Positions 49,715 through 64,000 of a stretch of DNA of 64,000 nt are shown here, piece by piece (the stretch's first letter is position 1; each line of letters begins with the position of its first letter). Position numbers and translations under genes: made by a program. This stretch comes from an uncultured bacterium (GTDB lineage: Bacteria > UBP4 > UBA4092). The stretch is taken from positions 62,001-126,000 of the forward strand of contig CAZXWN010000004.1 in assembly GCA_964644695.1 (NCBI GenBank), written 5' to 3'. The notes under the pieces are model-generated. The model made no database searches. It saw only the letters and a list, made by a program, of their open reading frames with translations, and was not told the DNA's origin.

Positions 49715-52501
49715 TTAAGGATTTACGCCTGTTATGGCGAACAACATCGGGGAAGCTTCCGTTGGAGAAGATTCCACATCAATGGTAGATATCACTTTCC
49801 CCGGATAAGGATTGACCCATTTACAGGCATTTATCCACCAGGGGATGTTCCCCTCACAGACCCCATAAGCCGCCACATTTCCCGAACAATAAGTATCCAT
49901 ATCCAGCCAGCCATAAATAGTCTGACCATACTTCAGTTCAATCGTGGCACTGGTTCCATCCGCATAGTTCACCCTGTACACTCCCACCTTACGGTTGACG
50001 GGTACAGAGAAAAGACAGGTATGAAGAAAATTCAATTCCGAGGCTTTCCGATTTACTTTTATTCCCTTTACCATGGCAGGGAAATTACGGGTCAGTCCTG
50101 AACCCTTCAACAACAACCCCTTACCCGATAACTGATAATACCGGTCATCCAATAAGTGAACTGCATTACCGGAAGGTAATCCCGACAAATCAATTCCTTT
50201 TCCATAACCCAGGAATCCCGATTGTCCATCATCCGTCAGAGAAATATTCACCGGAAGATTGACGGTAAATCCAGATTTGCTGGGAGTCTTCCATTGCGGT
50301 TCATCATACCAGACTTCCCGAAGAACTTTGGCTGGATAATAGGGCAGCACATAACCCGGTTCACTTTTCTTATTTCCAGCATTTTTCACAGAGGCCCGAT
50401 TATTAGGATTCCACCCTAAATCAGATTGAACGACATATCCCATCACCTGTTTCAGTTCTTTCTCCATGATTTTGTCGAACCCTGTCCATCCGGCCCAGGT
50501 GGTGTACATCATCCCTTCAACACCCCGGTCAGCACAATACTTGGTAAAGTAATTCATGTTGTCCAATCGATACCACGAACACCCAATGACATCCAACCCA
50601 TTCCCTCGATAAAGGTCAATTGTGGGATAGTCTTTCCATTCTTTATAATTCCAGTCTGCAATCACAATATCTTTCGGCAGATACTTGATATAGGACTGGA
50701 AGGAAGGTTTCTGGAGAATATCACCCCACATCACCATTCTGATTCCACGGGCTTTCAAGAAGTTATAAAATTGAATTGCTTCGGCAAAATACAGCTTCTC
50801 ATTTCCAATGGCCTTACAGGTTTCGTGGGTCGGGAAGGGTTGGAAATAATCGTGTTCATCCATCCCTACATGGAAATATTTCAAATCACCAAACAACTCA
50901 ATACATTCATCCAGGATGGGATATAAAACCTCCCGGGATTCTGGATTTAATGGACAATAAATCTTCGGATTATCGGAGTTTTCGGCAATATCCACATTCT
51001 GTCCATTGTTGAATAAACACCCATGTCCCAGGGTTTGAACTTCCGGCATCACTTCCATGTGATATCGTTTTGCCAGTTCAATGAGAGGTTTGATATCTTC
51101 CGGTTTCACAGAAAAAGGAGACTTCAAATTCGGTGCTGTTTTCCAGGCAATCCCCTTCTCCACTTCAATCAAAAGGTTATTGACCTTATACCGGGCAAAT
51201 ATCCGTTTCAGCATCTTGGCATGTACGACGGGAGAGGTTGTATCCACCAGGAAATGAATCCCACGATAGGCAAAGAAGGGCTTATCCCACACCTGAACCG
51301 CAGGTGCAGTGAGAGTTCCTTTTTCCGCTTTTCTCAATAATTGTTTGAAAGATTGAACACCGTACAAACTGCCCCGCTGGTCAGAACCGGCAATCAAGAC
51401 GACATTCGGCATCACCTTTAGAATATAACCTTCAGGACCCGGTTCCGTCGGTGATACTGTCAGATTGTTTTCTTCCAATAACCGGGCAACGACACCATTG
51501 TTCTCAGGCTCACCAATGACGATACAATTTTTCACACTTTTCACATCAGCTTCCTGGAGCACCTGAAGCGTAAATCCGGCAAGTCGCTGTATTTCCTCAT
51601 TCAAATCTTCAGAAACGATATTGTCTGCCTTGTCCGAGTTTGCAAGAACAATTTGGGTTTGTTTATTCAGGACAAAAGTCCCCGCCTGCCATTCACACTT
51701 CACAGGTTCAGGAATAATCTGTATGGGGCTGGATTTATAGGCCTGAGCGGCGGCCAGATTTTGGGTCGCTCTGGCACCCAGAATAACAGGGAGTGGATGA
51801 ACATCTTTTTTGTAGGTAATGAACTTTCCATCAAAATCTATCCCGGTTAATTTCCCCAGATACACGGGGTCTAAAAAAGAACCGGCCGTTTTGGAAAACG
51901 AAGAGAGTTCTTTGGAAGGTGTGGCGTTCCGGGTCACATTGACCCTCCACCACTTTTCGTTAGACATGGGTTTGGCTAATTCAGATAAGGGAATGGACAC
52001 TTCCGCCGTCCATTTATCCTTATATTTCTGCGTCTTGATGACCCAATTCACGACGACTCCGGTGTTAGCCTGACAATCCGAATATCGAATCCCGTTAATA
52101 TTCCCAACGAAATGATATAAGTTATCAACCGTAGCTACTTCTGCCGGAGATATAAATATCTCAATACAGTCATCATTGTAGGCTGCCATATTATCAATCG
52201 TTGCATTGGCAACAGTTTTCTCTATCCTAGATTCATAACAGGTAATCCCCAAATAGATATTTTGATGATCATAAAGAATCCGGAATTCCGTCTTCTCCTT
52301 AGTCGCGGCACCGGAGGTGTAATTCCCCAAAGTATAGACTGGAGCCTTACTCCAGTCAGTCTCATCTAAAGCGCCATTGATTTTCAGCGGAGATGTTGCC
52401 GATGCGGCCTTGGCTTCATACAAGACAGGTTCAGATGTCAGACCCCATCCCACCAGCATAATTCCGATAATGATTGTTCCTAATTGTCTCATCCACTTCA
52501 T
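49715..52501 (-). CDS. Secreted CBM9-like + GH20 beta-N-acetylhexosaminidase, paralog 4
   Basis: Signal peptide; INGALDETDW...DDCIEIFI...WTAEVSIP CBM9-like domain; IIPEP...EGYIL...GSD..G.LYG GH20b; HVGMDE catalytic pair; C-terminal beta-sandwich. Confidence 0.88.
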   Translation of the reverse strand: MKWMRQLGTIIIGIMLVGWGLTSEPVLYEAKAASATSPLKINGALDETDWSKAPVYTLGNYTSGAATKEKTEFRILYDHQNIYLGITCYESRIEKTVANATIDNMAAYNDDCIEIFISPAEVATVDNLYHFVGNINGIRYSDCQANTGVVVNWVIKTQKYKDKWTAEVSIPLSELAKPMSNEKWWRVNVTRNATPSKELSSFSKTAGSFLDPVYLGKLTGIDFDGKFITYKKDVHPLPVILGARATQNLAAAQAYKSSPIQIIPEPVKCEWQAGTFVLNKQTQIVLANSDKADNIVSEDLNEEIQRLAGFTLQVLQEADVKSVKNCIVIGEPENNGVVARLLEENNLTVSPTEPGPEGYILKVMPNVVLIAGSDQRGSLYGVQSFKQLLRKAEKGTLTAPAVQVWDKPFFAYRGIHFLVDTTSPVVHAKMLKRIFARYKVNNLLIEVEKGIAWKTAPNLKSPFSVKPEDIKPLIELAKRYHMEVMPEVQTLGHGCLFNNGQNVDIAENSDNPKIYCPLNPESREVLYPILDECIELFGDLKYFHVGMDEHDYFQPFPTHETCKAIGNEKLYFAEAIQFYNFLKARGIRMVMWGDILQKPSFQSYIKYLPKDIVIADWNYKEWKDYPTIDLYRGNGLDVIGCSWYRLDNMNYFTKYCADRGVEGMMYTTWAGWTGFDKIMEKELKQVMGYVVQSDLGWNPNNRASVKNAGNKKSEPGYVLPYYPAKVLREVWYDEPQWKTPSKSGFTVNLPVNISLTDDGQSGFLGYGKGIDLSGLPSGNAVHLLDDRYYQLSGKGLLLKGSGLTRNFPAMVKGIKVNRKASELNFLHTCLFSVPVNRKVGVYRVNYADGTSATIELKYGQTIYGWLDMDTYCSGNVAAYGVCEGNIPWWINACKWVNPYPGKVISTIDVESSPTEASPMLFAITGVNP

Positions 52502-52577
52502 ACCCAAGCTACTCCTTTTCAGTCGCACTGATCAAGCGCTTATTATTGTACCTTGTGACACCGGGAACAGGATATAG

Positions 52578-52611
52578 AAAAAGCCCCGGAATTGTAAAAT
52601 TCCGAGGCTTT
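52578..52611 (-). terminator. Terminator between GH20 paralogs 3 and 4
   Basis: aaagcc.cggaatt/aattccg.ggcttt. Confidence 0.75.
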
Positions 52612-52631
52612 CATGTTTTTAAGTTAACAGC

Positions 52632-55433
52632 TTAATACAAGGGGTCTGTTCCCGTTACGGCAATCAAGAAGGGTGATGCCAGTAGATAGTCACAAATGAA
52701 ATCAATGGAAACAATCTCACGGTCAGGCCGGGGGTTCTTCCAACTCATCTGGCGCAGATATACGGGTTGGCCGGTCGAGGTACAACCCTGAAATGCCAAT
52801 TGACCATTGAAATAACCCTGCAGGTCCTGCCATCCCGAAATATTGGTTCCGTAATATAACGGAATTTCGAGCGAAATCCCATCTTCAAAATTTACATGAT
52901 ATCGGCCCACCAATGTTTGTGGCGGTGCATTTAACAATGTCCCGTGGAGAAATTCTAAAGTATCCGTTTTCTTATTTACTTGAATATTTTCAATGATAAT
53001 GGGGCAATCCAATGTAATACCGCTTCCACGCAAGAAAATTCCGACAGGTTCATTACCCTTCTCGCTCAGCCGATAATGAACATCATTTATGGCGTGCAGG
53101 TCTCCCTTTTGCGTTGAGTTTACCAGGCAAGAAAGATCATTCCCAACACCGGCATTCATAAAACCTAACTGTCCATTATCTTGAAGTTTTATGTTGGCAT
53201 AGGGAGATAAATCTACTGCAAATCCAGACTGTTTCCGCTTCTTAAAAAGGTTGCCATAATAAAGTCGTCGCAAGATATTATCTGCATTGTACTCTGGATT
53301 CTTCCAGTCCCGATTTACAGGATTCCAGAACCAGTCCCCAGCTACAATATAGGATGCCATTTGATGAGGCTCTCTTTCTAACAGAGAAGCACTTCCATAA
53401 TACCCCGCCCATGTCGTGTGAAGCATTCCTTCACTACCCTTTTTGTAAGCCTGTTCACTAAACCGGGCAATGTTAGCCGGGTGATAAAAAGTTGAGCCCC
53501 AGATTTGCAGGCCTTTGTCCCGGTAAAAATCCACACTCGGTTGTGTTAAAGCCGGGTCATAGTGCCAGTCAGCTATTACCATATCCTTTGGTAGGGCATC
53601 CACATAAGGACGGTGATTATCCCGAAGGAAGATGTCACCCCACATGACCGGAGTGATTCCTCTGGCCTTCAGGAAATTGTAAACATACAGAGTGTCGCTA
53701 AAGTAGAGTTTCTCGATACCAACCGATTTACAAGTCTCATGATTCGGGAATTTTCCCGGATTGTCTATTTCATCATGACCAATATGGAAATACTTGGGAT
53801 TGTCGTATATATCAATAGCTTCTTTATACAAATCAAAGATGAAGTCGTAGGATTTGGTATCCATCGGGCAATATGCCCAGGGAGCGGAAGAATCCTCACA
53901 GAAATCAATGTTAGTGCTGTTATTCCGGAACATCCATTCTCCGTGCCCTAAGGATTGGACTAACGGATAGACTGCGATGTGCCGTTGTTTGGCCAGCTTC
54001 ACCAATTCTTTGATATGTTCTGGGGACACGGAATAGTTACAGAGGAGTTCCGTGTGACTCTTCCATGCCATTCCATGAGAAGACTCAAATATCAGAGTAT
54101 TAAATTTATAACGACTGAATATCTTCCGAATCATCCAGGCATGAGCAAGGGGAGACTCATTATCAATATGGACATGAGCTGCTCTTATTTTGAAGGCCGG
54201 TTTATCCCAAATATCTGCGCCTAACACCATGACTGATTTGTCAGCTTTGGCACGCATCAGCTGCTTGAGTGATTGGACACCATAATAGGTCCCATCCTCA
54301 TCCGAACCACCAATCAATATTTGTCGGGGCCGAACTGTTAAAACATACCCTTCCGGTCCCGGGGAAGATGAATCGACACTCTGGCCCAGTTCATTCAGCG
54401 CAGATTTTAAGGCGGGGAATTTATCGGCCTGACCTAAAACAATTGAATTTGTATAATTCTTCGGGGTATAAAGACTGTAGGTAATGATCGCTATGGAATC
54501 CAGTCCATATTCTTCATTCAGTTCCTCATTAATCTCATCAGCCGCACTCCGAATCCTTTCAGAAGCATTATCAGGAATGACAATCACTGTACGGGATCCT
54601 AATTCAAAAGGACTGGATTGCGGAACCAACTTCACGGGTTTGGGTATCACTACTAAAGGAGAAATGTATGGGTCATAAGCCGCAGGAAGAGGAATAGCTC
54701 TTCGTCCCTGTTCAGAAGTCTCCAATTGGCTCAATGATTTCTTAAGCCCAATAAATTTACCATCCAGGTCTATTCCCTCAAGAATCCCAAAACTATAGGG
54801 GGTATGGAATCCCAAAGGTGTCTTAGCCCAGGATGAAAACTGCCCCTGACCGCCTATCCATCGTTCCCGAAACAGGTTTATTCGCCAAAAAGCAGCATTC
54901 GTATTGGGGTCAACAATGGTAGAGAGTTTGATGCGAATCTCTACCGTCCAGGATTCGGATTGACGATTCGTTTTAACATTCCAGATAGGAAGGCGTTCAG
55001 GATATCGCGTATTTGAAGTGTATTTTACTCCATTACTATTTGATACCAGGTGGATATAGGATTCCGACTGCGGAGCTTCCTCACCCGAAAGCATAACTTC
55101 CACACAATCGTCCATGAAGACAGCACTATTTTCAGCAGTACATTTTGCAACCACATTCGCCATGTCTGATTCATGGCACTGAAATCCAATATATAGATAC
55201 TCACGGTCATACATTAACAAGGCAGAAGTGTTTTCTTTGAGAATTTCCCCCGTTTCATATTGACCCAAGGTAACTTCTCTGGCAGAACTCCACTCCGATG
55301 AGTCTAGAACCCCATCCAGTACCGGAGGGTTCTCCGTCCAACCCGGACTGACTCTGGGTAAATCTTGTGCAGCACTAACCCCCATACATAAAACAAACAA
55401 CAACCAGACCTTAAGGCCTCGTCCAACAAGCAT
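52632..55433 (-). CDS. Secreted CBM9-like + GH20 beta-N-acetylhexosaminidase, paralog 3
   Basis: Same architecture; HIGHDE; GAGGAG RBS before ATG 55433. Confidence 0.88.
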   Translation of the reverse strand: MLVGRGLKVWLLFVLCMGVSAAQDLPRVSPGWTENPPVLDGVLDSSEWSSAREVTLGQYETGEILKENTSALLMYDREYLYIGFQCHESDMANVVAKCTAENSAVFMDDCVEVMLSGEEAPQSESYIHLVSNSNGVKYTSNTRYPERLPIWNVKTNRQSESWTVEIRIKLSTIVDPNTNAAFWRINLFRERWIGGQGQFSSWAKTPLGFHTPYSFGILEGIDLDGKFIGLKKSLSQLETSEQGRRAIPLPAAYDPYISPLVVIPKPVKLVPQSSPFELGSRTVIVIPDNASERIRSAADEINEELNEEYGLDSIAIITYSLYTPKNYTNSIVLGQADKFPALKSALNELGQSVDSSSPGPEGYVLTVRPRQILIGGSDEDGTYYGVQSLKQLMRAKADKSVMVLGADIWDKPAFKIRAAHVHIDNESPLAHAWMIRKIFSRYKFNTLIFESSHGMAWKSHTELLCNYSVSPEHIKELVKLAKQRHIAVYPLVQSLGHGEWMFRNNSTNIDFCEDSSAPWAYCPMDTKSYDFIFDLYKEAIDIYDNPKYFHIGHDEIDNPGKFPNHETCKSVGIEKLYFSDTLYVYNFLKARGITPVMWGDIFLRDNHRPYVDALPKDMVIADWHYDPALTQPSVDFYRDKGLQIWGSTFYHPANIARFSEQAYKKGSEGMLHTTWAGYYGSASLLEREPHQMASYIVAGDWFWNPVNRDWKNPEYNADNILRRLYYGNLFKKRKQSGFAVDLSPYANIKLQDNGQLGFMNAGVGNDLSCLVNSTQKGDLHAINDVHYRLSEKGNEPVGIFLRGSGITLDCPIIIENIQVNKKTDTLEFLHGTLLNAPPQTLVGRYHVNFEDGISLEIPLYYGTNISGWQDLQGYFNGQLAFQGCTSTGQPVYLRQMSWKNPRPDREIVSIDFICDYLLASPFLIAVTGTDPLY

Positions 55434-55519
55434 ATAGGTACTCTCCTCTGACAAGAAAACAATACAACAAGGTGTTAAAGTGTATGCCAATTGATATCAG
55501 CATTATACACTATAAAAAA

Positions 55520-58297
55520 TCAATACATCGCTCCTGTTACAGCGAATAGAAATGGTGCTGCATCAGGAGATACCACTTGCACAGATAAATTCGATATCAC
55601 TTTATCCGGATTTGGATTAACCCAAATAAATTGAGATAGGTAAACCGGTTTGTCATAATCATTGGTTCCAGCCCACGACAAACCACCCTTGTAATAAGTA
55701 GATAACTCATTCCATCCCGGACAATTCCGCCCAGCAACGTCACAGGTAACTACTGACTTATCTATATATTGTACCTTATATTTCAAAACTGAAGTAGAGG
55801 AAGATACGCCAATTAGTGCTCCCTGAAGAAAATGAAGCGCCTTTGCTTTCCGATTTACGGGAATAGCACTTATCTCCCGGGGAAATTGCTTCATAATATC
55901 AGGACCTTGCAACAATATAGCCGAGGGCATACCTATTACTTCTGAAATATGGTAAAAAACACCATCAAGCCCCTGCAACACATGTCGTATACCTTGCTGA
56001 TCCACCATCTTCGTCAGTTCAAATCCCGGCAAGCCAGAGCCCGTTACCGGAAGATTTGCATAAGGTGCCAAATTCAAAACAAATCCAGACTGCGTTCTGG
56101 GTGTACTGTCCTGCCCAAACCATATCTTCCGTAACAGGTTATCGGGATTATAAGATAAATTCCAAACATCACGGTTCACTGGATTCCACCAGATGTCAGC
56201 CGCTCCGATATATCCGGCAACCTGCTCTGGAGCACGTTGTACAATCGTTGAATTTTTGTCATAACCCGCCCAAGTCGTCTGCATCATCCCAAGACACCCA
56301 ATACGGTGTGAATAATTGGCAAATCGATTGTAATTATCAGGTCTGTACCATGTTCCGCCTATTACCGGAAAACCCAGTTTCATATACATTTCATTTGTGG
56401 GCTGTTCATTTTCATAGGTGTAATGCCAGTCCGCAATCATAATATCTTTGGGCAAGGCCTTCAGATACTTTTCATACCCTTCTCTGCGGAAGATATCACC
56501 CCATATCATCGTTTTGATGCCGCGAGTCGAGAGGTAATTATAAGTAATCATGGTGTCGGCATAATACAGTGCCTGATTGGATACGGCTTTACACCAGGGG
56601 TGATTTGCATACTTACCGTTGAATGTGTATTCATCATGCCCAATATGAATGGTCTTGGGATGGTTGAAGTAGTCAATGACCTCATCATAAATCGAGAAAA
56701 TAAAGTCATAGGACCGCGGGTCCAACGCACAGTATGCGTAGGGATACGGGGACGCATCCTCACAGAATTCCAAATTAGTACGGACACTTCGTCCTGTGGA
56801 ATCCTTGGTAGAGAACATCCATTCGCCATGGCCCGGGTGGTTGATCAAAGGCACCACTTCAATAAAATTGTCATTGGCATAAGCCACCAATTCCCGAACT
56901 TCGTCGGGCTTCATGGCATAAGGTTTTACAATTTCGGGATGACTCTTCCAGGCAACGCCATGTTCTGCTTCCATCACCAGCTGGTTATATTTGTAACGGG
57001 CGAAAATGTCTCGAATCATCTTCTTATGTACAGTGGGTGAATCCCTATCCAGAAGGATGTGACAGGAGCGCACCTTGAATCCCGGCTGGTCCCAGACCTG
57101 AGCCCCCTTCAGTTTCCATACCTTCTCTTCCTGAGCCACTAACTGACGGAGTGACTGGGCGCCATAAAAGATACCCGGTCCATCTGTGCCAAGAACAACC
57201 GCCAGACTCGACTTGACGGAGAGGGTATAACCTTCCGGACCAGGAGCAGAATCGCCACTATATCCAAGGGATATCCATTTATCACCACGGCTCCGCTCAG
57301 CAAAGATGATGCAGTTCTGTAAGGGAGCACCAGACAATTCGGACAGCGTAAGAATCGGGAGCGTAAGACCACTACCCCGCTCTGTTAATTCTTCATTGAT
57401 GACCTGCGCCGCCTTTTTTTCACCATAACTGGGATAATCCGGCAATACGATTTTAGTTCCGGAGTTAATATTCATGTTCCACGGAGTAAGTTTCATCGCC
57501 ACGGGTTTAGGAATAATATCTAACGGCATTTCATAGGGAGCAATAGCGGTCTTCAAATCCATAACAGATTTGATAGAACCGGCATCCCTGTGGACCGGAG
57601 TAACGGGTTTACTGCGTCCAATAAATTCACCATCAATATCTATCCCGGATAACCGGCCAAAACACCATGGAGAATGAAAATATCCCGGCGTTGTCGCCCA
57701 TGAGGTCAATTCATGTTGGGGCAGCCGCATCCGCATCAAATTTATGCGCCAATATTCCATATCCCGCAGCGGGTCTTTGAGGTCTTTGAGAGCAACCGAA
57801 AACTCTGCAGTCCAGGATTTACCCTGCCTGTCGCCGGCACATTGGAAGTCAGGACGTCGCGGGCGGTCCAGATAATTGCACCAATACCCTGCACCCAGAG
57901 CATTGATAGCAAAATGGAAGTAGTTATAAGATGTCGCGCTTTGATAGGGTGCAATCATCAACTGCACACAATCATCGTCATAGACATCTGCATTTTCAAA
58001 GGTTGCACCTAAGTGGAGTTTATCCATAAAGGGTTCTTCACAACGGAACCCTACATACAACCGTTCATTGTCATACATCAGGTAGGCATCTGTTTTCGCA
58101 TGGGCGGGCTGCCCGGACGATGTCTGCACAAAAGTAACATGGGCAGCATTATCCCACTCACCCGGTGTAAGTTTTCCATCCATCTTCGGAGGCACCGAAG
58201 TAAAAACAGGTTTCACCTCCGGCACATCCGCCGCAAACACAGACACAGCGGTAACAACACCAAACACAAATCCAACCAGTACACTTTTAACCTGCAT
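55520..58297 (-). CDS. Secreted CBM9-like + GH20 beta-N-acetylhexosaminidase, paralog 2
   Basis: Same architecture; HIGHDE; signal peptide ending VFA. Confidence 0.88.
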   Translation of the reverse strand: MQVKSVLVGFVFGVVTAVSVFAADVPEVKPVFTSVPPKMDGKLTPGEWDNAAHVTFVQTSSGQPAHAKTDAYLMYDNERLYVGFRCEEPFMDKLHLGATFENADVYDDDCVQLMIAPYQSATSYNYFHFAINALGAGYWCNYLDRPRRPDFQCAGDRQGKSWTAEFSVALKDLKDPLRDMEYWRINLMRMRLPQHELTSWATTPGYFHSPWCFGRLSGIDIDGEFIGRSKPVTPVHRDAGSIKSVMDLKTAIAPYEMPLDIIPKPVAMKLTPWNMNINSGTKIVLPDYPSYGEKKAAQVINEELTERGSGLTLPILTLSELSGAPLQNCIIFAERSRGDKWISLGYSGDSAPGPEGYTLSVKSSLAVVLGTDGPGIFYGAQSLRQLVAQEEKVWKLKGAQVWDQPGFKVRSCHILLDRDSPTVHKKMIRDIFARYKYNQLVMEAEHGVAWKSHPEIVKPYAMKPDEVRELVAYANDNFIEVVPLINHPGHGEWMFSTKDSTGRSVRTNLEFCEDASPYPYAYCALDPRSYDFIFSIYDEVIDYFNHPKTIHIGHDEYTFNGKYANHPWCKAVSNQALYYADTMITYNYLSTRGIKTMIWGDIFRREGYEKYLKALPKDIMIADWHYTYENEQPTNEMYMKLGFPVIGGTWYRPDNYNRFANYSHRIGCLGMMQTTWAGYDKNSTIVQRAPEQVAGYIGAADIWWNPVNRDVWNLSYNPDNLLRKIWFGQDSTPRTQSGFVLNLAPYANLPVTGSGLPGFELTKMVDQQGIRHVLQGLDGVFYHISEVIGMPSAILLQGPDIMKQFPREISAIPVNRKAKALHFLQGALIGVSSSTSVLKYKVQYIDKSVVTCDVAGRNCPGWNELSTYYKGGLSWAGTNDYDKPVYLSQFIWVNPNPDKVISNLSVQVVSPDAAPFLFAVTGAMY

Positions 58298-58366
58298 GAT
58301 AAAACCTTTCAAAGGATATAAATCCCTCTACGGTTCCCTGACAAATAACAAAGAAATACTATATGT

Positions 58367-61225
58367 TTATTCAGCGCCAGTTATAGCCATCAGTAACAGA
58401 CTGACTGGATTCCCTGTCTGTTCCATATCAATGGACTGAATTGTTTTCTCAGGATGTGGATTGCTCCAGTTGTATTTCTTCAAATAGACTGGGGATCCAT
58501 TTCCTTTTTTAATCAAGTTTAATAATTCAGTCTTGTGGAAACGCATTGGAGCCTGCAGGTACACCGGCTGACCCGTCCGGGTATTACCAGACCAGACGAA
58601 ATTACCGGAGGAATACTGGCCTCCATCCTGCCAGGCAGACAAATTCACACCATACACGATAGGAATCACAATGTTGGTTCCATCAGTATATTTGATAGTG
58701 TATCGGCCTACGGTTGAACCTGTGGGGGTGGAATACAGGCAAGTGTGCAGGAAATTCAGCGATGAGGCTTTCCGATTGATGGCGATGTTCTTCACCTGAG
58801 TGGGGAAGGAGTTGCTGATTCCACTACCCTGTAGCAGGACACCGACCGGAGTTCCATTCATTGTTGTGAATTTATAGGTGACACCATCCAACAGCTGTGT
58901 CTTACCCGGAGCGGTCAACAGCGACAGGTCATAACCAGGTTTCACCTGGAGGAATCCACGCTTCGCAGAATCATCGGACAGGGTAATATTGGCAACAGAG
59001 GACAGGTTAACACTAAACCCTTTTCTCAGGGGTTTGTCAGCAGCCATCTGATACCACTGGCGATACAGAATAGTGAAAGGTTCATAACCCAGATTGTTAA
59101 TATCACGGTCCACTGGGTTCCAGAAATAATCGCCGGCAATAATATAGGCCGCAATCTGGCTGGGATATTTCTCAACCAGGACATCATTATTGTTGTAGCC
59201 GGGCCAGGTGGTCTGCATCATACCCAGAATTTTGTTTTGATGTCCATATTCAGCAAATCTGGAGATATTGGTTGGGATATCCCAGGTACCGCCGATGATG
59301 GGCAGATTGTATTCTTTATATGTCGTTACGGACGGATATTCAAAATTGGGGGAATACCGCCAGTCAACAATCACCAGATCTTTGGGGATTCCATTCAGAT
59401 ATTTCACATAGTTTTTTGTGGCCAGGACATCGCCCCACATCATGGTTTTGATACCTTTGGACTTCAGGTAATTGTAAAGCTTGATGGTATCCATGAAATA
59501 GAGTCCACCGGCACCAATAGCTTTGCATTCCTCATGAGACGGGAAGTGTCCGCGCATTTCGACTTCATCATGGCCAATATGGAGATACTGGGGATGGTCA
59601 AAAACATCAATGGCTTCATCAAACAGGGCAAAGATGAAATCATAGGATTTCTTGTTCAGAGGACAATAGGCATAATGAGAGGCCGTCTCTTCACAGAAGT
59701 CTTCATTCATCCATGTCCGGGTTTTCTGCCAGGTCGTATTACTGAACATCCATTCACCATGACCGAGAGACTGAACCATGGGGACCATATCCAAAAACAG
59801 GCTCTTTCCATATTTGACCAGTTCTCGAACTTCCTCTTGGTTGGCGGCGAAGGGTTTATTGATTTCAGGATGGCTCTTGAACTGAAGACCATTTTCCAGT
59901 TCTACAACGACCTGATTATATTTGTACCGGGCAATAAGGTCCCGGAACTGACGGCGATGAATCTTGGGAGAATTGTTGTCCAGAATAATATGGACTGAAC
60001 GGACCTTGAAGGTGGGTTCATCATCAATATTGGCACCTTTGATAACGAGCTTTTTGGCAGTGCCACGGATGAGCTGTTTCAAGGACTGGGAACCATAGAA
60101 GGTACCCCGTTCGTCACTACCGGCAACAACGATAGTATCCGGGAAACTCCGGAGGATATATCCTTCAGCACCCGGCATCTTGACTTTGTAATTATCACCA
60201 AGGGCTTTCATGGTGAGAGTTTTCTTGGCTTCACCCAGGACGATGGTATTCTTCAAATCAACTTTAAGAACATCGTCCACTTTGACGATGGGTAATGCAC
60301 TAAAACCGAAGTACTCTATCAGTTCTTCATTAATTCCCTGGGCGGCGATTTCTTCACCATGAGAGGGTTTGTTCGGGATCAGTATCCGTGTTTCAGGAGT
60401 AATCACAAAATCCGTTCCGGTCATTGTGATGGATTTCGGGAGAGGAATCACATGAACGGGTAAATCCAGGGGGCTGGTCGCAGTGGCTAAGGAATAGACT
60501 GCTGTCTTATCGCCTTTAACTTTGAGGGGGGATAAGACGGACCGTAATCCAATAAACTTTCCATTCCGGTCCAGACCGGTCAGACGACCGAAGACTTGTG
60601 GATTATGGAAGGGGCCTTTGGTGGGGATCCAGCTGGTGTATTCCGGAGGAGTTCCCTGTCTTTCACGCATCAGGTTGATTCTCCAGAAGGCCGCATTCTC
60701 ATTGGGGTCCACAATAGAATCGAGTTTGATGGCCATTTCGATGGTCCACTGGTCGGCAAATTTACCCACCGCAGACTTAATGACCGGGTTCCGATCAGGA
60801 TATTTCAAATCAGAAGCATAGACATAATTATTGGCATTAATGCCGATATGAACGTAGTTTCCTTCTGAGGCAGACTCAGCGGAAGCGATCATGATTTCCG
60901 CCACATCATCCAGGAATATCAGGTCGTCATCACAAGTGGCTTTTGCATAGATATTCTTGATATCTGATTCAAAGCAACGGTAGGCGATGTAGAGATTATC
61001 ATCATCACAGGTCAGATAAACAGTCGTTTTATGGGGAGCGGGTGTTCCGTCCATGTGTTTATTCAATTGAACGGAAACGGCATTTTTCCATTCCGCATCA
61101 CTGAGTACACCATCCAAAACAGGAGGAGTATTAACTCGGGTGGGTTTCAAAGTTGGAACTTGTGAATACCCCCAGACAGACAACATCGATACGGCAACAA
61201 TAAAAAGTAGAATCCTTTTTCCCAT
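58367..61225 (-). CDS. Secreted CBM9-like + GH20 beta-N-acetylhexosaminidase, paralog 1
   Basis: Same architecture; HIGHDE; signal peptide. Confidence 0.88.
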   Translation of the reverse strand: MGKRILLFIVAVSMLSVWGYSQVPTLKPTRVNTPPVLDGVLSDAEWKNAVSVQLNKHMDGTPAPHKTTVYLTCDDDNLYIAYRCFESDIKNIYAKATCDDDLIFLDDVAEIMIASAESASEGNYVHIGINANNYVYASDLKYPDRNPVIKSAVGKFADQWTIEMAIKLDSIVDPNENAAFWRINLMRERQGTPPEYTSWIPTKGPFHNPQVFGRLTGLDRNGKFIGLRSVLSPLKVKGDKTAVYSLATATSPLDLPVHVIPLPKSITMTGTDFVITPETRILIPNKPSHGEEIAAQGINEELIEYFGFSALPIVKVDDVLKVDLKNTIVLGEAKKTLTMKALGDNYKVKMPGAEGYILRSFPDTIVVAGSDERGTFYGSQSLKQLIRGTAKKLVIKGANIDDEPTFKVRSVHIILDNNSPKIHRRQFRDLIARYKYNQVVVELENGLQFKSHPEINKPFAANQEEVRELVKYGKSLFLDMVPMVQSLGHGEWMFSNTTWQKTRTWMNEDFCEETASHYAYCPLNKKSYDFIFALFDEAIDVFDHPQYLHIGHDEVEMRGHFPSHEECKAIGAGGLYFMDTIKLYNYLKSKGIKTMMWGDVLATKNYVKYLNGIPKDLVIVDWRYSPNFEYPSVTTYKEYNLPIIGGTWDIPTNISRFAEYGHQNKILGMMQTTWPGYNNNDVLVEKYPSQIAAYIIAGDYFWNPVDRDINNLGYEPFTILYRQWYQMAADKPLRKGFSVNLSSVANITLSDDSAKRGFLQVKPGYDLSLLTAPGKTQLLDGVTYKFTTMNGTPVGVLLQGSGISNSFPTQVKNIAINRKASSLNFLHTCLYSTPTGSTVGRYTIKYTDGTNIVIPIVYGVNLSAWQDGGQYSSGNFVWSGNTRTGQPVYLQAPMRFHKTELLNLIKKGNGSPVYLKKYNWSNPHPEKTIQSIDMEQTGNPVSLLLMAITGAE

Positions 61226-61433
61226 GATCCTGATTTCCTTCCAATCCGAAATTATCAAACCCTTAGAAATAGCAATTCACCTAATATTCTAACCTTGATA
61301 GAGAGTCTCGTGTGTATTAAATCTTTGTGTAACCGGTTTAACCTGCAAAAATATTTTCACTTACATACAAATCGCCCTTGTTTTTTGGGCTTTTCCCCTG
61401 AATTTCGGCAATATTTCAATACTGTTGAACTGA

Positions 61434-61766: not shown

Positions 61767-62618
61767 TTAGGTGAGGCTGTTGGCAAGCCGGGCAAAATCA
61801 GACATGGAGAGCTGTTCCCCCCGGGCATCCGGTGATATGTTCAGTTCGCGTAATCGAGCAACAAAAGCATCCTTCTCCAAACCACGAGTAAACGCAAACG
61901 AGGCCATGGCATTAGAGATTTTCTTTCGACGCTGACCAAACCCCGCTTTAATGGTATTAAAGAATACCTTTTCATTGGTTACCGGGACGGGTGGAGTTGT
62001 GTGCCGTGCCAATCGAAGAACAGTCGAATCCACTTCGGGAGCGGGGAAGAAGGCCTTCCGAGGGACATCTGCGACCCGTTCCACCTGACACCGATATTGA
62101 ACAGACAGAGTCAGAACTCCATAATCCTTATTGTCGGGTACGGCCATAATTCGGTCCGCAACTTCCCGTTGTATCATGATGACAATAGACTCAAACGGAA
62201 CTTCCGTCTCAATAAGTTTCATCAAAATGGGAGTGGTGATGTAATAAGGCAGGTTGCCGACAATCTTAAAGGGTCTTCCGGGGAAATTATTCACGAAAGG
62301 CATCAAGTCCATTTCCAATATGTCACCTAATATATAGGCAATATTTCCATATTGGGATAGACGGCGTTTGGCGAGAGATTGGACTTCACGGTCGATTTCT
62401 ACGGTGATGACATTCCCTGCCTGGTGGGCCAGTCCTTCCGTCAGTTGTCCGGTGCCGGTCCCAATCTCAAAAACCACATCGTCTTTGGTTGGATTTACGG
62501 CATCCACGATCTGTGCCAATGACTTCTCATCTGTCAGTAACGATTGGCCCAGACCCTTTTTTAATCGGACTTTACTTTTTTGGAGGGACTTTATTAATTC
62601 ATGATTGGATTGCGGCAT
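61767..62618 (-). CDS. rsmA: 16S rRNA m6,2A1518/1519 dimethyltransferase
   Basis: KKGLGQ, EIGTGTG, VEID, VGNLPYYITTP, MIQREVA, FFPAPEVDS, QRRKK. Confidence 0.96.
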   Translation of the reverse strand: MPQSNHELIKSLQKSKVRLKKGLGQSLLTDEKSLAQIVDAVNPTKDDVVFEIGTGTGQLTEGLAHQAGNVITVEIDREVQSLAKRRLSQYGNIAYILGDILEMDLMPFVNNFPGRPFKIVGNLPYYITTPILMKLIETEVPFESIVIMIQREVADRIMAVPDNKDYGVLTLSVQYRCQVERVADVPRKAFFPAPEVDSTVLRLARHTTPPVPVTNEKVFFNTIKAGFGQRRKKISNAMASFAFTRGLEKDAFVARLRELNISPDARGEQLSMSDFARLANSLT

Positions 62619-62658
62619 AAGTAATATCTATTATCGCATAGATGCTAATGCAATCTAT

Positions 62659-63225
62659 TCAGGGTGCTACCATACGAAACCAATCTCTTATTACTTGCTT
62701 TATACGTGCGTGCTCCTCATCACTGATGACTGACATATGACATATATTATTACGTAGATGCGAAATATGCTTTGCCTCTTCTATAAGAGACTTATCTCTC
62801 ACACTTTCGGCAAAATAGTCTTTCCATAATGCATTCATAATAGCTACCAATTGACTATATGTCAGTAAACGCTCTTTTTCTCTGCCTGTTATTGCCATCC
62901 AACTCTTCTGATTTTCTATAGTTTCACTTTTACGAATGTCATCAATAATATTTTCTGGTATTATTTTCCACCATTCGTTCTTTGCTTTTGATGACAATTC
63001 TGCAACAACAAACTCACGCAAATAATTCTCAAAAACAAAAAAAAGTTTATATGATTCCGCAGCCTTTGTAGCATCGCGAACACTGTCCGGTAATAATTCA
63101 GCTAAATTAATTGTATTGGAAAGATAAAGGGGTATATCGTTTGTAACATTTACATCTTCAGATATTTTTTTATTAGCTATTTGGCCTAAAGTCAAAAACA
63201 GTGCCAGTTTTTCGGCATTAATCAT
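62659..63225 (-). CDS. Swt1-like HEPN domain protein (predicted RNase)
   Basis: YKLFFVFENYLREFV...WW, LTYSQL..I...W..F, and RNNICH (RxxxxH) at 62737-62754. Confidence 0.78.
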   Translation of the reverse strand: MINAEKLALFLTLGQIANKKISEDVNVTNDIPLYLSNTINLAELLPDSVRDATKAAESYKLFFVFENYLREFVVAELSSKAKNEWWKIIPENIIDDIRKSETIENQKSWMAITGREKERLLTYSQLVAIMNALWKDYFAESVRDKSLIEEAKHISHLRNNICHMSVISDEEHARIKQVIRDWFRMVAP

Positions 63226-63824
63226 TTAAATACCTTTCGGATTGCACTAAAAATATTCAAATATGTTTCTTCTGAACAATTGCTTGGCAAATGTACCTGA
63301 ATGTTAAAGTGAAAGTCCGTTGTAAATCCATCGTTGCTAGGAGCAACGGCCAATTTATCAGCAAACACCTCATCCCTTTCTTCTTCCTCTTTATCGCTGT
63401 TGTACGAAAAGTCTGCCAATGGTACTAAGGCCTTAAAAGTCCCTAGTATTTTGCTTACTTGGGCACTATCTCCACCGCTAACTTGTGAAACAATACCCTT
63501 CATTTCCTCATTACCTAGAACATGTATATTTTCATTAGCTGCATATAAATCTCTGTATGCTTCCTTTATAGCGTCAGCCATCACTTTTCTAGAAGCAGTA
63601 TCATTTTTGTATAATTTATATCTTTCCGTTGGCTTACTTGTAGTATCCAAGAACCCTAACGATCGCAAAAGTGAAATCAATGCTCTATCCGCAGTGCTTT
63701 TAAGCCCTATGGTATGGGATAAAAATTTATGAGTAAAAGCATCCGGAATCTTTGCTGATTTCATTTTTTGGAACAAAGCACCGACATTTTTATATGATGG
63801 TAGGTATGGAATTTCGTTTTTCAT
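63222..63824 (-). CDS. DUF5343-like protein
   Basis: FTHKFL...GLKS..DR...LLRSLGFLD...PTERY...AIKEAY.DL and C-terminal FNIQVHLP...Y..IF.AI; AAGGAG RBS; ATGA overlap with the HEPN gene. Confidence 0.72.
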   Translation of the reverse strand: MKNEIPYLPSYKNVGALFQKMKSAKIPDAFTHKFLSHTIGLKSTADRALISLLRSLGFLDTTSKPTERYKLYKNDTASRKVMADAIKEAYRDLYAANENIHVLGNEEMKGIVSQVSGGDSAQVSKILGTFKALVPLADFSYNSDKEEEERDEVFADKLAVAPSNDGFTTDFHFNIQVHLPSNCSEETYLNIFSAIRKVFK

Positions 63825-64000
63825 GCAGTTTCTCCTTATTTATCTGTTTTTTTGTTAATTGATACAACTCTAAGGCATCATGTCTTTTATAAAAATCAGC
63901 GATATCATCGTCCTCATATTTATCCCCCAGGAATTTCTTCAATGAAACAATAAATAAAACATTAAGACCAATATATTTATTAACTACATGTTTATCATTT
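63790..64000 (-). CDS. 3' end of an unknown gene entering from the right edge
   Basis: Open for 69 codons from 63999 (NDKHVVNKYIGLNVLF...KRNSIPTII) to TAA at 63792-63790; overlaps the DUF5343-like start by 35 nt. Confidence 0.6.
   Translation of the reverse strand, partial: NDKHVVNKYIGLNVLFIVSLKKFLGDKYEDDDIADFYKRHDALELYQLTKKQINKEKLHEKRNSIPTII

Follow-up and report, generated by a model that had tools for sequence, protein, structure and literature searches.

A DUF5343–HEPN gene pair beside rsmA of an uncultured UBP4 bacterium is a copy of the predicted defense candidate PDC-M34, whose DUF5343 family occurs with several types of nuclease

Directly upstream of rsmA in an uncultured bacterium of the lineage UBP4 (UBA4092), two small overlapping genes form an AT-rich patch, and the question raised by this locus is whether they constitute a defense or toxin–antitoxin (TA) module and how such a module might work. 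The window, a stretch of 64,000 nucleotides (assembly GCA_964644695.1, contig CAZXWN010000004.1, positions 62,001 to 126,000), contains on its minus strand a 188-residue open reading frame (ORF) at 62659–63225 (gene B), a 200-residue ORF at 63222–63824 (gene A), and a third ORF that is open from 63790 to the window end. An earlier note on this DNA had described these three co-oriented, overlapping frames and proposed an uncharacterized DUF5343-like plus Swt1-like HEPN system, adding that a match to an already named system would remove its novelty. Both proteins match the two families of the PADLOC entry PDC-M34 nearly over their full length and in the A–B order, with no difference at the family level. 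Judged by sequence, the pair is a copy of this catalogued candidate and ordinary as such, and the novelty of an unlisted system is lost, the PDC entries themselves being predictions. More interesting is the family: its protein, so far unstudied and probably DNA-binding, occurs coupled to nucleases of several kinds. The features of the pair (1.17 kb) are as follows.

62659–63225, minus strand: gene B, Swt1-like HEPN protein of 188 residues, PADLOC PDC-M34B, predicted RNase (PF18731, E 1.7e-13; PDC-M34B, E 1.8e-24)
62737–62754, minus strand: HEPN catalytic motif R158-N-N-I-C-H163 of B (sequence and alignment)
63157–63216, minus strand: residues 4–23 of B, N-terminal helix, hydrophobic and conserved, lying outside the HEPN core and possibly serving in docking (model and conservation)
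63222–63225, minus strand: ATGA stop/start overlap of A and B, translational coupling (sequence; NTGA-type A end in 69 of 79 scored related loci)
63222–63824, minus strand: gene A, DUF5343 protein of 200 residues, PADLOC PDC-M34A (PF17278, E 3.1e-41; PDC-M34A, E 1.6e-50)
63225–63320, minus strand: residues 169–200 of A, conserved C-terminal strand-like plus helix module, FHFNIQVHLP...YLNIFSAI (alignment)
63321–63404, minus strand: residues 141–168 of A, variable low-confidence linker (pLDDT <50 at 148–168; unaligned in the homologue alignment)
63405–63824, minus strand: residues 1–140 of A, winged helix-turn-helix (HTH) plus second helical HTH-like lobe, predicted to bind DNA (AlphaFold2 model, fold matches, charge)
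63832–63837, minus strand: Shine–Dalgarno sequence AAGGAG, 7 nt before the ATG of A and within the end of the upstream ORF (sequence)

Both Pfam assignments (DUF5343 and HEPN_Swt1) exceed the Pfam cut-off, as the earlier note had expected of a profile search, and the PADLOC matches cover positions 1–205 of 208 in the PDC-M34A model and 22–191 of 192 in that of PDC-M34B. Homologue searches returned 591 relatives of A and 140 of B, the best 120 of each ranging from about 43% to 57% identity (about 50% for A). The predicted structure of B (pLDDT 80) matched AbiF (8vz6; Z 8.5, root-mean-square deviation (rmsd) 4.1, 132 residues aligned) and yeast Swt1 (4pqz; Z 8.2, rmsd 2.9, 104 residues aligned), with further HEPN entries next in the ranking. 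R158 and H163, read from the letters as an RxxxxH motif (RNNICH), occur without exception in the 64 aligned homologues, and R-x4-H is present in all 83 locus copies. By computation, B thus has the predicted HEPN fold with an invariant R-x4-H motif, which it shares with the AbiF/Abi2-Swt1 RNases. The AbiF structure, however, is a 297-residue dimer bound to non-coding RNA, whereas B is smaller, is accompanied by a protein partner, and showed no conserved upstream element. The N-terminal helix of B is conserved as well (G14 in 64/64, F10 in 63/64, A8 in 61/64, A17 in 59/64 homologues) and may serve in docking.

In the AlphaFold2 model of A (pLDDT 83), a helical domain up to approximately residue 140 is followed by a disordered linker and by a C-terminal segment whose end is helical. 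The architecture proposed from the sequence holds for the N-terminal domain and for the C-terminal module, in which F171, N174, Q176, P180, I191, F192, and F199 are invariant (64/64 homologues). The acidic linker is found in this copy (nine D/E vs. three K/R), but the linker of homologues is variable and sometimes proline-rich. The N-terminal domain has a median net charge of +5 (64 homologues). In fold searches, most matches to A span just a winged helix of 60–80 residues. Six of 50 rows of the first search align 132–156 residues, namely FokI, N.BspD6I, two BrxA structures (7zge, 3bhw), SspB, and BpuJI (Z 4.8–6.0); the second search gave five of 50 such rows, with SspB at the top (Z 6.4, 139 residues aligned) and PaqCI as an addition. 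The long alignments (128–156 residues, Z 4.1–6.4) are exclusively to this group. Because the Z values are below 8, the assignment depends on how coherent the set of matches is, and this set weakly suggests that residues 1–140 form a double HTH resembling the recognition domains of BrxA, SspB, and FokI and are likely to bind DNA. BrxA binds double-stranded DNA and shares its fold with SspB, BpuJI, and FokI, according to two studies (PMC9240713, PMC12839542). The two-lobed HTH arrangement modeled for A aligns weakly with that of this group; in A it is followed by the linker and the C-terminal module, and the nuclease is encoded by a separate, coupled gene. BREX, Ssp, and methylase genes are not conserved beside A, and brxB, brxC, pglX, and pglZ are absent from the locus studied here.

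The conserved pairing anticipated for A and B was analyzed in a metagenome scan with the B alignment, from which the best 80 of 191 confirmed loci were kept. A lies directly upstream of B in 78 of them as detected by HMM, and the remaining two carry the C-terminal end of A, so that the pairing extends to 80 of 80 loci. Among 327 neighboring ORFs from 66 dereplicated loci, no family recurred as a further partner. The putative contact between A and B is deduced from coupling and conservation only; a prediction of the complex gave a median score of 0.30 against a mark of 0.32, a result not counted as evidence. Forms of A that are fused or longer (414–2000 residues) were absent among 7999 candidates, which is weak evidence, and TPR-fused DUF5343 proteins did occur in genome searches.

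The third frame overlaps the start of A by 35 nt as noticed before, but it is not a truncated gene: beyond the window it is complete.

63790–64000, minus strand: 3′ end of a 282-residue orphan gene with what we take to be a class III cyclase-like motif, co-inserted neighbor and not a member of the system (runs to contig position 126638, window-equivalent 64638)

The whole gene covers contig positions 125790–126638 (268 residues from the second Met). Its product has no match above the cut-off in Pfam, PADLOC, or NCBIfam and none among PDB profiles, and just three other representatives were found at E ≤ 0.001. The nearest named Atlas cluster is PF00211 at 0.89, a lead only, with unnamed Atlas clusters at 0.96–0.97. 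The alignment of three sequences contains two conserved aspartates and a GG motif, and the two-aspartate pattern presumably corresponds to that of class III nucleotidyl cyclases. Together with the co-orientation and the overlap, these features would suit a three-gene signaling system similar to CBASS or Pycsar, in which a cyclic nucleotide produced by the upstream protein would activate the HEPN protein through A. This is very improbable, because a homologue of the orphan occurs in none of the 83 pair loci; as a conserved third member, it was therefore rejected. Moreover, A has its own Shine–Dalgarno sequence, no nucleotide-sensor fold is among its fold matches, and the guanine-plus-cytosine (GC) content of the orphan (0.283) is unlike that of the pair. 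Unlike CBASS and Pycsar, the pair has no cyclase conserved beside its effector.

The PDC entries are 145 untested predicted candidates embedded in BREX, DISARM, or type I restriction–modification (RM) loci (10.1101/2024.01.29.577857); in contrast to this criterion, the copy described here lies outside any RM, BREX, or DISARM locus. The main text of that preprint (Payne et al., 2024) names neither M34 nor Swt1 nor DUF5343 in the portion available. A full-text literature search, beyond whose reach most subscription journals lie, yielded no paper on the characterization of DUF5343, PF17278, or PDC-M34, and passages of the DefensePredictor, S. thermophilus, two integron, and Mordret preprints contain no such pair, although their supplements or figures could list it. 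The pair is therefore a small, self-contained predicted defense candidate for which the literature searched offers no characterization. The Swt1-like fusions listed in the accessible part of PMC3710099 involve a DUF499 ATPase and giant proteins with a winged HTH; this gene pair is not among them. HEPN-MNT and other two-gene HEPN TA pairs, as well as the RM-embedded guards of the PrrC type, likewise have a small gene upstream of a HEPN RNase, and for HEPN-MNT and PrrC the same source, within that part, predicts a suicidal or dormancy output, as is assumed here. A, however, is a predicted DNA-binding protein, unlike a nucleotidyltransferase or ABC ATPase partner.

The relation of DUF5343 to nucleases extends beyond Swt1. 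PF17278 was found in 10 of 401 genomes sampled across the domain and in 47/401, 11/381, 2/79, 3/206, and 1/17 genomes of five phyla. Fifty-three genomic DUF5343 loci were examined, approximately 19 weaker places from the 47/401 phylum search being left out; since kin are not independent, these locus counts are descriptive. A pattern search detected the C-terminal module in 20 of the 53 loci, and 19 of these 20 have an adjacent downstream gene of the nuclease type: Swt1-HEPN (12), Ymh-HEPN (PF09509; 4), an unnamed protein with an R-N-x3-H motif (2), and REase_DpnII-MboI (PF18742, E 2.4e-23; 1), a DNase of the PD-(D/E)XK type. The exception is locus L133, where a module-bearing DUF5343 gene has no nuclease neighbor. 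The 33 loci lacking the module comprise two with a variant module and a DUF4145-like partner (L125 and L140, the DUF4145 matches being below the cut-off), one deletion remnant, two weak matches below the cut-off, and 28 nuclease-free loci. The latter were judged by ORF inspection of the next gene, two of these neighbors having been domain-scanned, and belong to approximately four lineages (17 beside secA, 5 TPR-fused, 4 and 2 solo). In a tree of 43 DUF5343 proteins, A groups by partner type: the Ymh and DUF4145-like clades are fully supported and Swt1 partners occur in several separate clades, while the backbone is weak. At E ≤ 0.001, none of the Ymh, DUF4145-like, and unnamed partners is matched by the PDC-M34B models.

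This partner exchange invites a wider reading, which we hold tentatively and consider rather less than probable: DUF5343 may be a widespread minimal DNA-surveillance immune family, in which a BrxA-like protein uses its C-terminal module to activate nucleases of interchangeable kinds (HEPN RNases of the Swt1-, Ymh-, and DUF4145-like types, the unnamed R-x4-H protein, and the PD-(D/E)XK DNase), perhaps as a decoy or guard. It might fire in response to phage DNA, to anti-restriction proteins that mimic DNA, or to loss of the host chromosome, and the nuclease-free branches would have been kept as ordinary DNA-binding proteins. If so, PDC-M34 would be widened into a family of modular sensors whose trigger would be a new one.

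The unnamed partner is a 175-residue family with an RNECAH motif (L104:759–1286 and L107:778–1302). It has no Pfam match above the cut-off and no PADLOC, NCBIfam, or PDB match, and hhalign against the B alignment gave a probability of 0.15; by its motif it could possibly be a HEPN family, perhaps a new one, which is unproven. The nuclease-free clade beside secA belongs to the phylum of genome G058 (L111–L114, L116–L118, L120–L124, L126, L128–L130, L138) and has a fixed neighborhood, which by reading consists of a secA-like gene, DUF5343, a hypothetical protein of 155 residues, and an SPFH-like gene; this clade looks domesticated. In L145–L149, a single family (f293), DUF5343 is fused via a long acidic linker to a TPR-like C-terminus, and the genes lie beside response regulators.

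The loci also contain defective alleles. Among 67 loci with at least 600 nt of upstream sequence, five have a broken A and a whole B (A is interrupted by IS3 in one, truncated at the 5′ end in two, and frameshifted in two), and the same was found in L082, L140, and L141. In the genome set selected by A, A is broken in two loci (L140 and L141), B in none; B is absent in one (L133) and both are deleted in one (L135). The remnant in L135 (positions 1357–1725, genome G677) fuses the first 57 matched residues of A to a HEPN C-terminal end and adjoins an apparent MNT-HEPN pair. In 46 upstream regions of A, neither a conserved operator nor an enriched motif was detected, and inverted repeats were as frequent as in shuffled sequences (14/46 vs. 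a mean of 14.8), a crude test given the divergent hosts.

A defense-type role of the pair is likely. The best reading of how it is exerted, in which our confidence is somewhat less than even, is a mobile two-gene abortive defense module in which DNA-bound A acts as a sensor and activator that switches on the HEPN RNase. A would sit on DNA via its BrxA/SspB/FokI-like domain and be joined to B through its C-terminal module and the hydrophobic N-terminal helix of B. B alone would be largely inactive, A being the sensor and activator of an exchangeable effector. When A meets invading DNA, or when infection disturbs its DNA-bound state, A may gather HEPN protomers into an active dimer, the form in which HEPN RNases are active, and the RNase would then arrest the cell. 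That foreign DNA, DNA mimics, or degradation of host DNA is the trigger can only be guessed, on the basis of the BrxA-like fold and of the embedding by which PDCs are defined. Should A prove to be an activator that binds DNA and has exchangeable RNase and DNase effectors, BrxA-type DNA recognition would be linked to abortive defense, and trigger and effector of this two-part switch would be separable for study. The role of BrxA in BREX itself is unsettled (PMC9240713, PMC12839542).

A possible though rather doubtful alternative is a type II TA pair, perhaps abortive, in which B is a constitutively active toxin and A an antitoxin with a DNA-binding N-terminus and a neutralizing C-terminus, so that loss of A after host shut-off would free B. 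As in such systems, the pair consists of two small coupled genes with the putative antitoxin first; in 69 of 79 loci, A precedes B and is coupled to it by NTGA. The antitoxin-first order is also typical of HEPN TA pairs (PMC3710099). The architecture of HTH, linker, and short C-terminal module, the integron cassettes, and the adjoining AbiE TA pair are in accordance with this alternative as well. Promiscuous antitoxins such as Panacea exist, and toxin exchange would resemble them here. On the other hand, a single blocking antitoxin would need to accommodate RNases as well as a DNase. The loci with broken A and whole B also count against this alternative, as does, in the crude upstream test, the lack of a conserved operator or of excess inverted repeats. 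In addition, tblastn with two different A proteins matched none of 72,556 plasmid records, although addiction modules should typically be found on plasmids. Three findings modestly favor the sensor/activator role: the association of one A family with RNases as well as a DNase, the several loci in which a broken A stands beside a whole B, and the lack of an operator signal. The balance tips slightly toward the activator, which the broken-A loci may fit slightly better than an antitoxin. Even a plain TA pair would represent a new antitoxin family serving several unrelated toxins.

Several points weigh against the sensor/activator reading. Gene order and overlap both correspond to a type II TA pair. 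The broken-A alleles may be explained by polarity on the coupled B, promoter loss, assembly error, or selection on an intact B, and because the 82 loci were picked by best B match, a broken B would be invisible. The fold matches of A reach Z values of at most 6.4 (rmsd 3.4–4.5, identity 7–12%), the tool's threshold for a meaningful match being Z 8, and Foldseek of A against PDB returned nothing at E ≤ 0.001; a PDB sequence search with the A alignment likewise gave no match. The nuclease-free DUF5343 genes (28 of 53 loci) retain a degenerate strand–helix tail, so the C-terminal module may serve self-oligomerization and not effector docking. In 42 of 57 loci, no defense domain occurs among the scanned neighbors, and the defense counts stand without a background rate. 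The function of the pair, including its role in defense, is a computational prediction.

The nuclease-free lineages also bear on the assumption that the pair is not directed against phages but is a stress or regulatory module, composed of a DNA-binding regulator and an RNA-processing HEPN protein, or a selfish cassette of no benefit to the host. These lineages occur in fixed housekeeping contexts (beside secA, valS, and two-component genes), many pair loci stand alone among housekeeping genes, and an identity of about 50% across distant taxa is high for a defense gene. We regard this explanation as unlikely: the distribution is patchy (one of five genomes of the own phylum, 10 of 401 in the cross-domain sample), and the low GC content, the integron and island contexts, the exchange of nuclease effectors, and the PADLOC embedding criterion argue against it. 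In the domain scan of neighbors, which covered the nearest 150 of 303 neighboring ORFs in 57 loci (the ORFs were picked by length and some are spurious), defense-type Pfam domains were found beside the pair in 15 loci, among them Abi_C, TIR, SIR2, Mrr, HNH, BglII plus methylase, and the AbiU2 and DUF4145 HEPNs, and mobile-element domains in five. At E ≤ 1e-12, PADLOC models matched 13 of the 150 neighbor proteins, two of these matches being generic.

The pair is mobile and foreign, as indicated by its low GC content, the integron cassettes, the AbiE neighbor, and the defense-type domains in 15 of 57 loci; computation shows that the genes travel together. Its GC content is 0.354 as compared to 0.477 for rsmA, 0.501 for glmS, 0.458 for the GH20 genes, and 0.421 for the genome, in agreement with the AT-rich segment seen before; GC at third codon positions is 0.27–0.30 vs. 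0.49 (rsmA) and 0.53 (glmS). A GC content as low as that of the pair is reached in 6.9% of 2620 equal-sized genome windows, and in 46 of 48 loci the flanks are richer in GC than the pair. Some related copies are integron cassettes; in L019 and L049, the pair is bracketed by attC sites. Strict attC matches (upstream 3/45 and downstream 3/65 loci vs. 9/375 background windows) are not clearly above background as a rate, but the sites of L019 and L049 are paired and nearly identical on both sides. GTTAG occurs 10–70 nt ahead of A in 12 of 47 loci vs. 2.2% background. A simple attC scan, which also missed sites visible by eye elsewhere, found none flanking the copy studied here. Phage records contained no match to the two A proteins, viral contigs none to the alignments of A or B, and Foldseek of A against viral structures gave nothing at E ≤ 0.001. 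Beyond the catalogue entry, the analysis adds the double-HTH model of A, the exchange of nuclease partners, the integron cassettes, and the broken-A loci.

The flank of the pair in the window comprises two further features.

61767–62618, minus strand: rsmA, host flank outside the system, ATG at 62618 (PF00398, E 1.2e-58)
62619–62658, no strand: 40-bp gap from the B stop to rsmA, with a likely insert boundary near 62643/62644 (related-strain contigs, weak hint)

The order of the locus is rsmA, B, A, the 282-residue orphan, AbiEi and AbiEii on the opposite strand, and glmS; the extension of the contig recommended for locating the island boundary thus led past the orphan and the AbiE pair to glmS. 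The complete AbiEi–AbiEii pair, identified by PF13338, PF08843, and the PADLOC AbiE models, lies just past the window at contig positions 126866–128373 (6867–8374 of the locus stretch L001, in which 4644 corresponds to window position 62643) and is preceded by a 27-bp inverted repeat (L001:6812–6869), its operator. This type IV TA pair shares the insertion site between glmS and rsmA, but it is oriented oppositely, has its own operator, and has no homologue in the 83 pair loci; it is a module independent of the pair. A single contig of one run (X3) joins L001 8448 to 6757 and could represent a circular or tandem AbiE unit of 1.7 kb.

In G002, a genome of the same family, glmS and rsmA are approximately 130 bp apart, which represents the empty site. 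The suspected horizontal acquisition is supported, and so is a defense-type setting, with AbiE next door and this empty site. In G001, the interval holds instead, by ORF reading, an anaerobic ribonucleotide reductase-like pair (nrdD/nrdG-like, L098:2579–5361), so the site accepts varied cargo; by eye, the structured leader of these genes resembles a cobalamin riboswitch. DUF5343 is present in one of the five genomes of the phylum, that of the pair. Tn7 cargo at attTn7 was rejected, as neither tns genes nor terminal repeats were found in the 3.8-kb interval downstream of glmS, where the AbiE operator and the glmS terminator are the sole clear repeats. Two related-strain contigs align through rsmA up to L001 4644 and continue with 23 and 28 unlike letters, and a third stops at L001 4642, which is a weak hint at a left insert boundary near 62643/62644. 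In four related-strain runs, L001 4645–6756 (B, A, and the orphan) has little or no cover and no joining contig, which was not counted as absence. Given the empty site in G002, the different cargo in G001, the absence of Tn7 genes and ends, and the boundary hint, the pair and its neighbors are a small variable insert at the glmS–rsmA site. In the unrelated genome G088, another DUF5343–nuclease pair (L107:778–1920) lies directly downstream of glmS, oriented opposite to it.

No terminator was found in the 40 bp between B and rsmA, in keeping with the first reading of the sequence. The sole nearby minus-strand match is a weak stem of five pairs at the A/B junction, and the region gave four matches vs. 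2.8 ± 1.8 in shuffled sequences. The promoter scan (17 sites vs. 15.7 ± 4.1 in shuffles) was uninformative.

Elsewhere in the window, positions 49715–61258 hold at least four tandem paralogues of approximately 930–960 residues, the GH20 genes of the earlier note, each with a similar carbohydrate-binding-like N-terminal domain. A second AT-rich patch is located just before smpB (contig positions 136751–139077) and contains three genes for small membrane proteins, two of them near-duplicates, as well as an assembly gap. The largest contig of the genome (C1, 838 kb) has a GC content of 0.388, below that of all 27 others (0.411–0.459), which possibly reflects a difference in binning or replicon.

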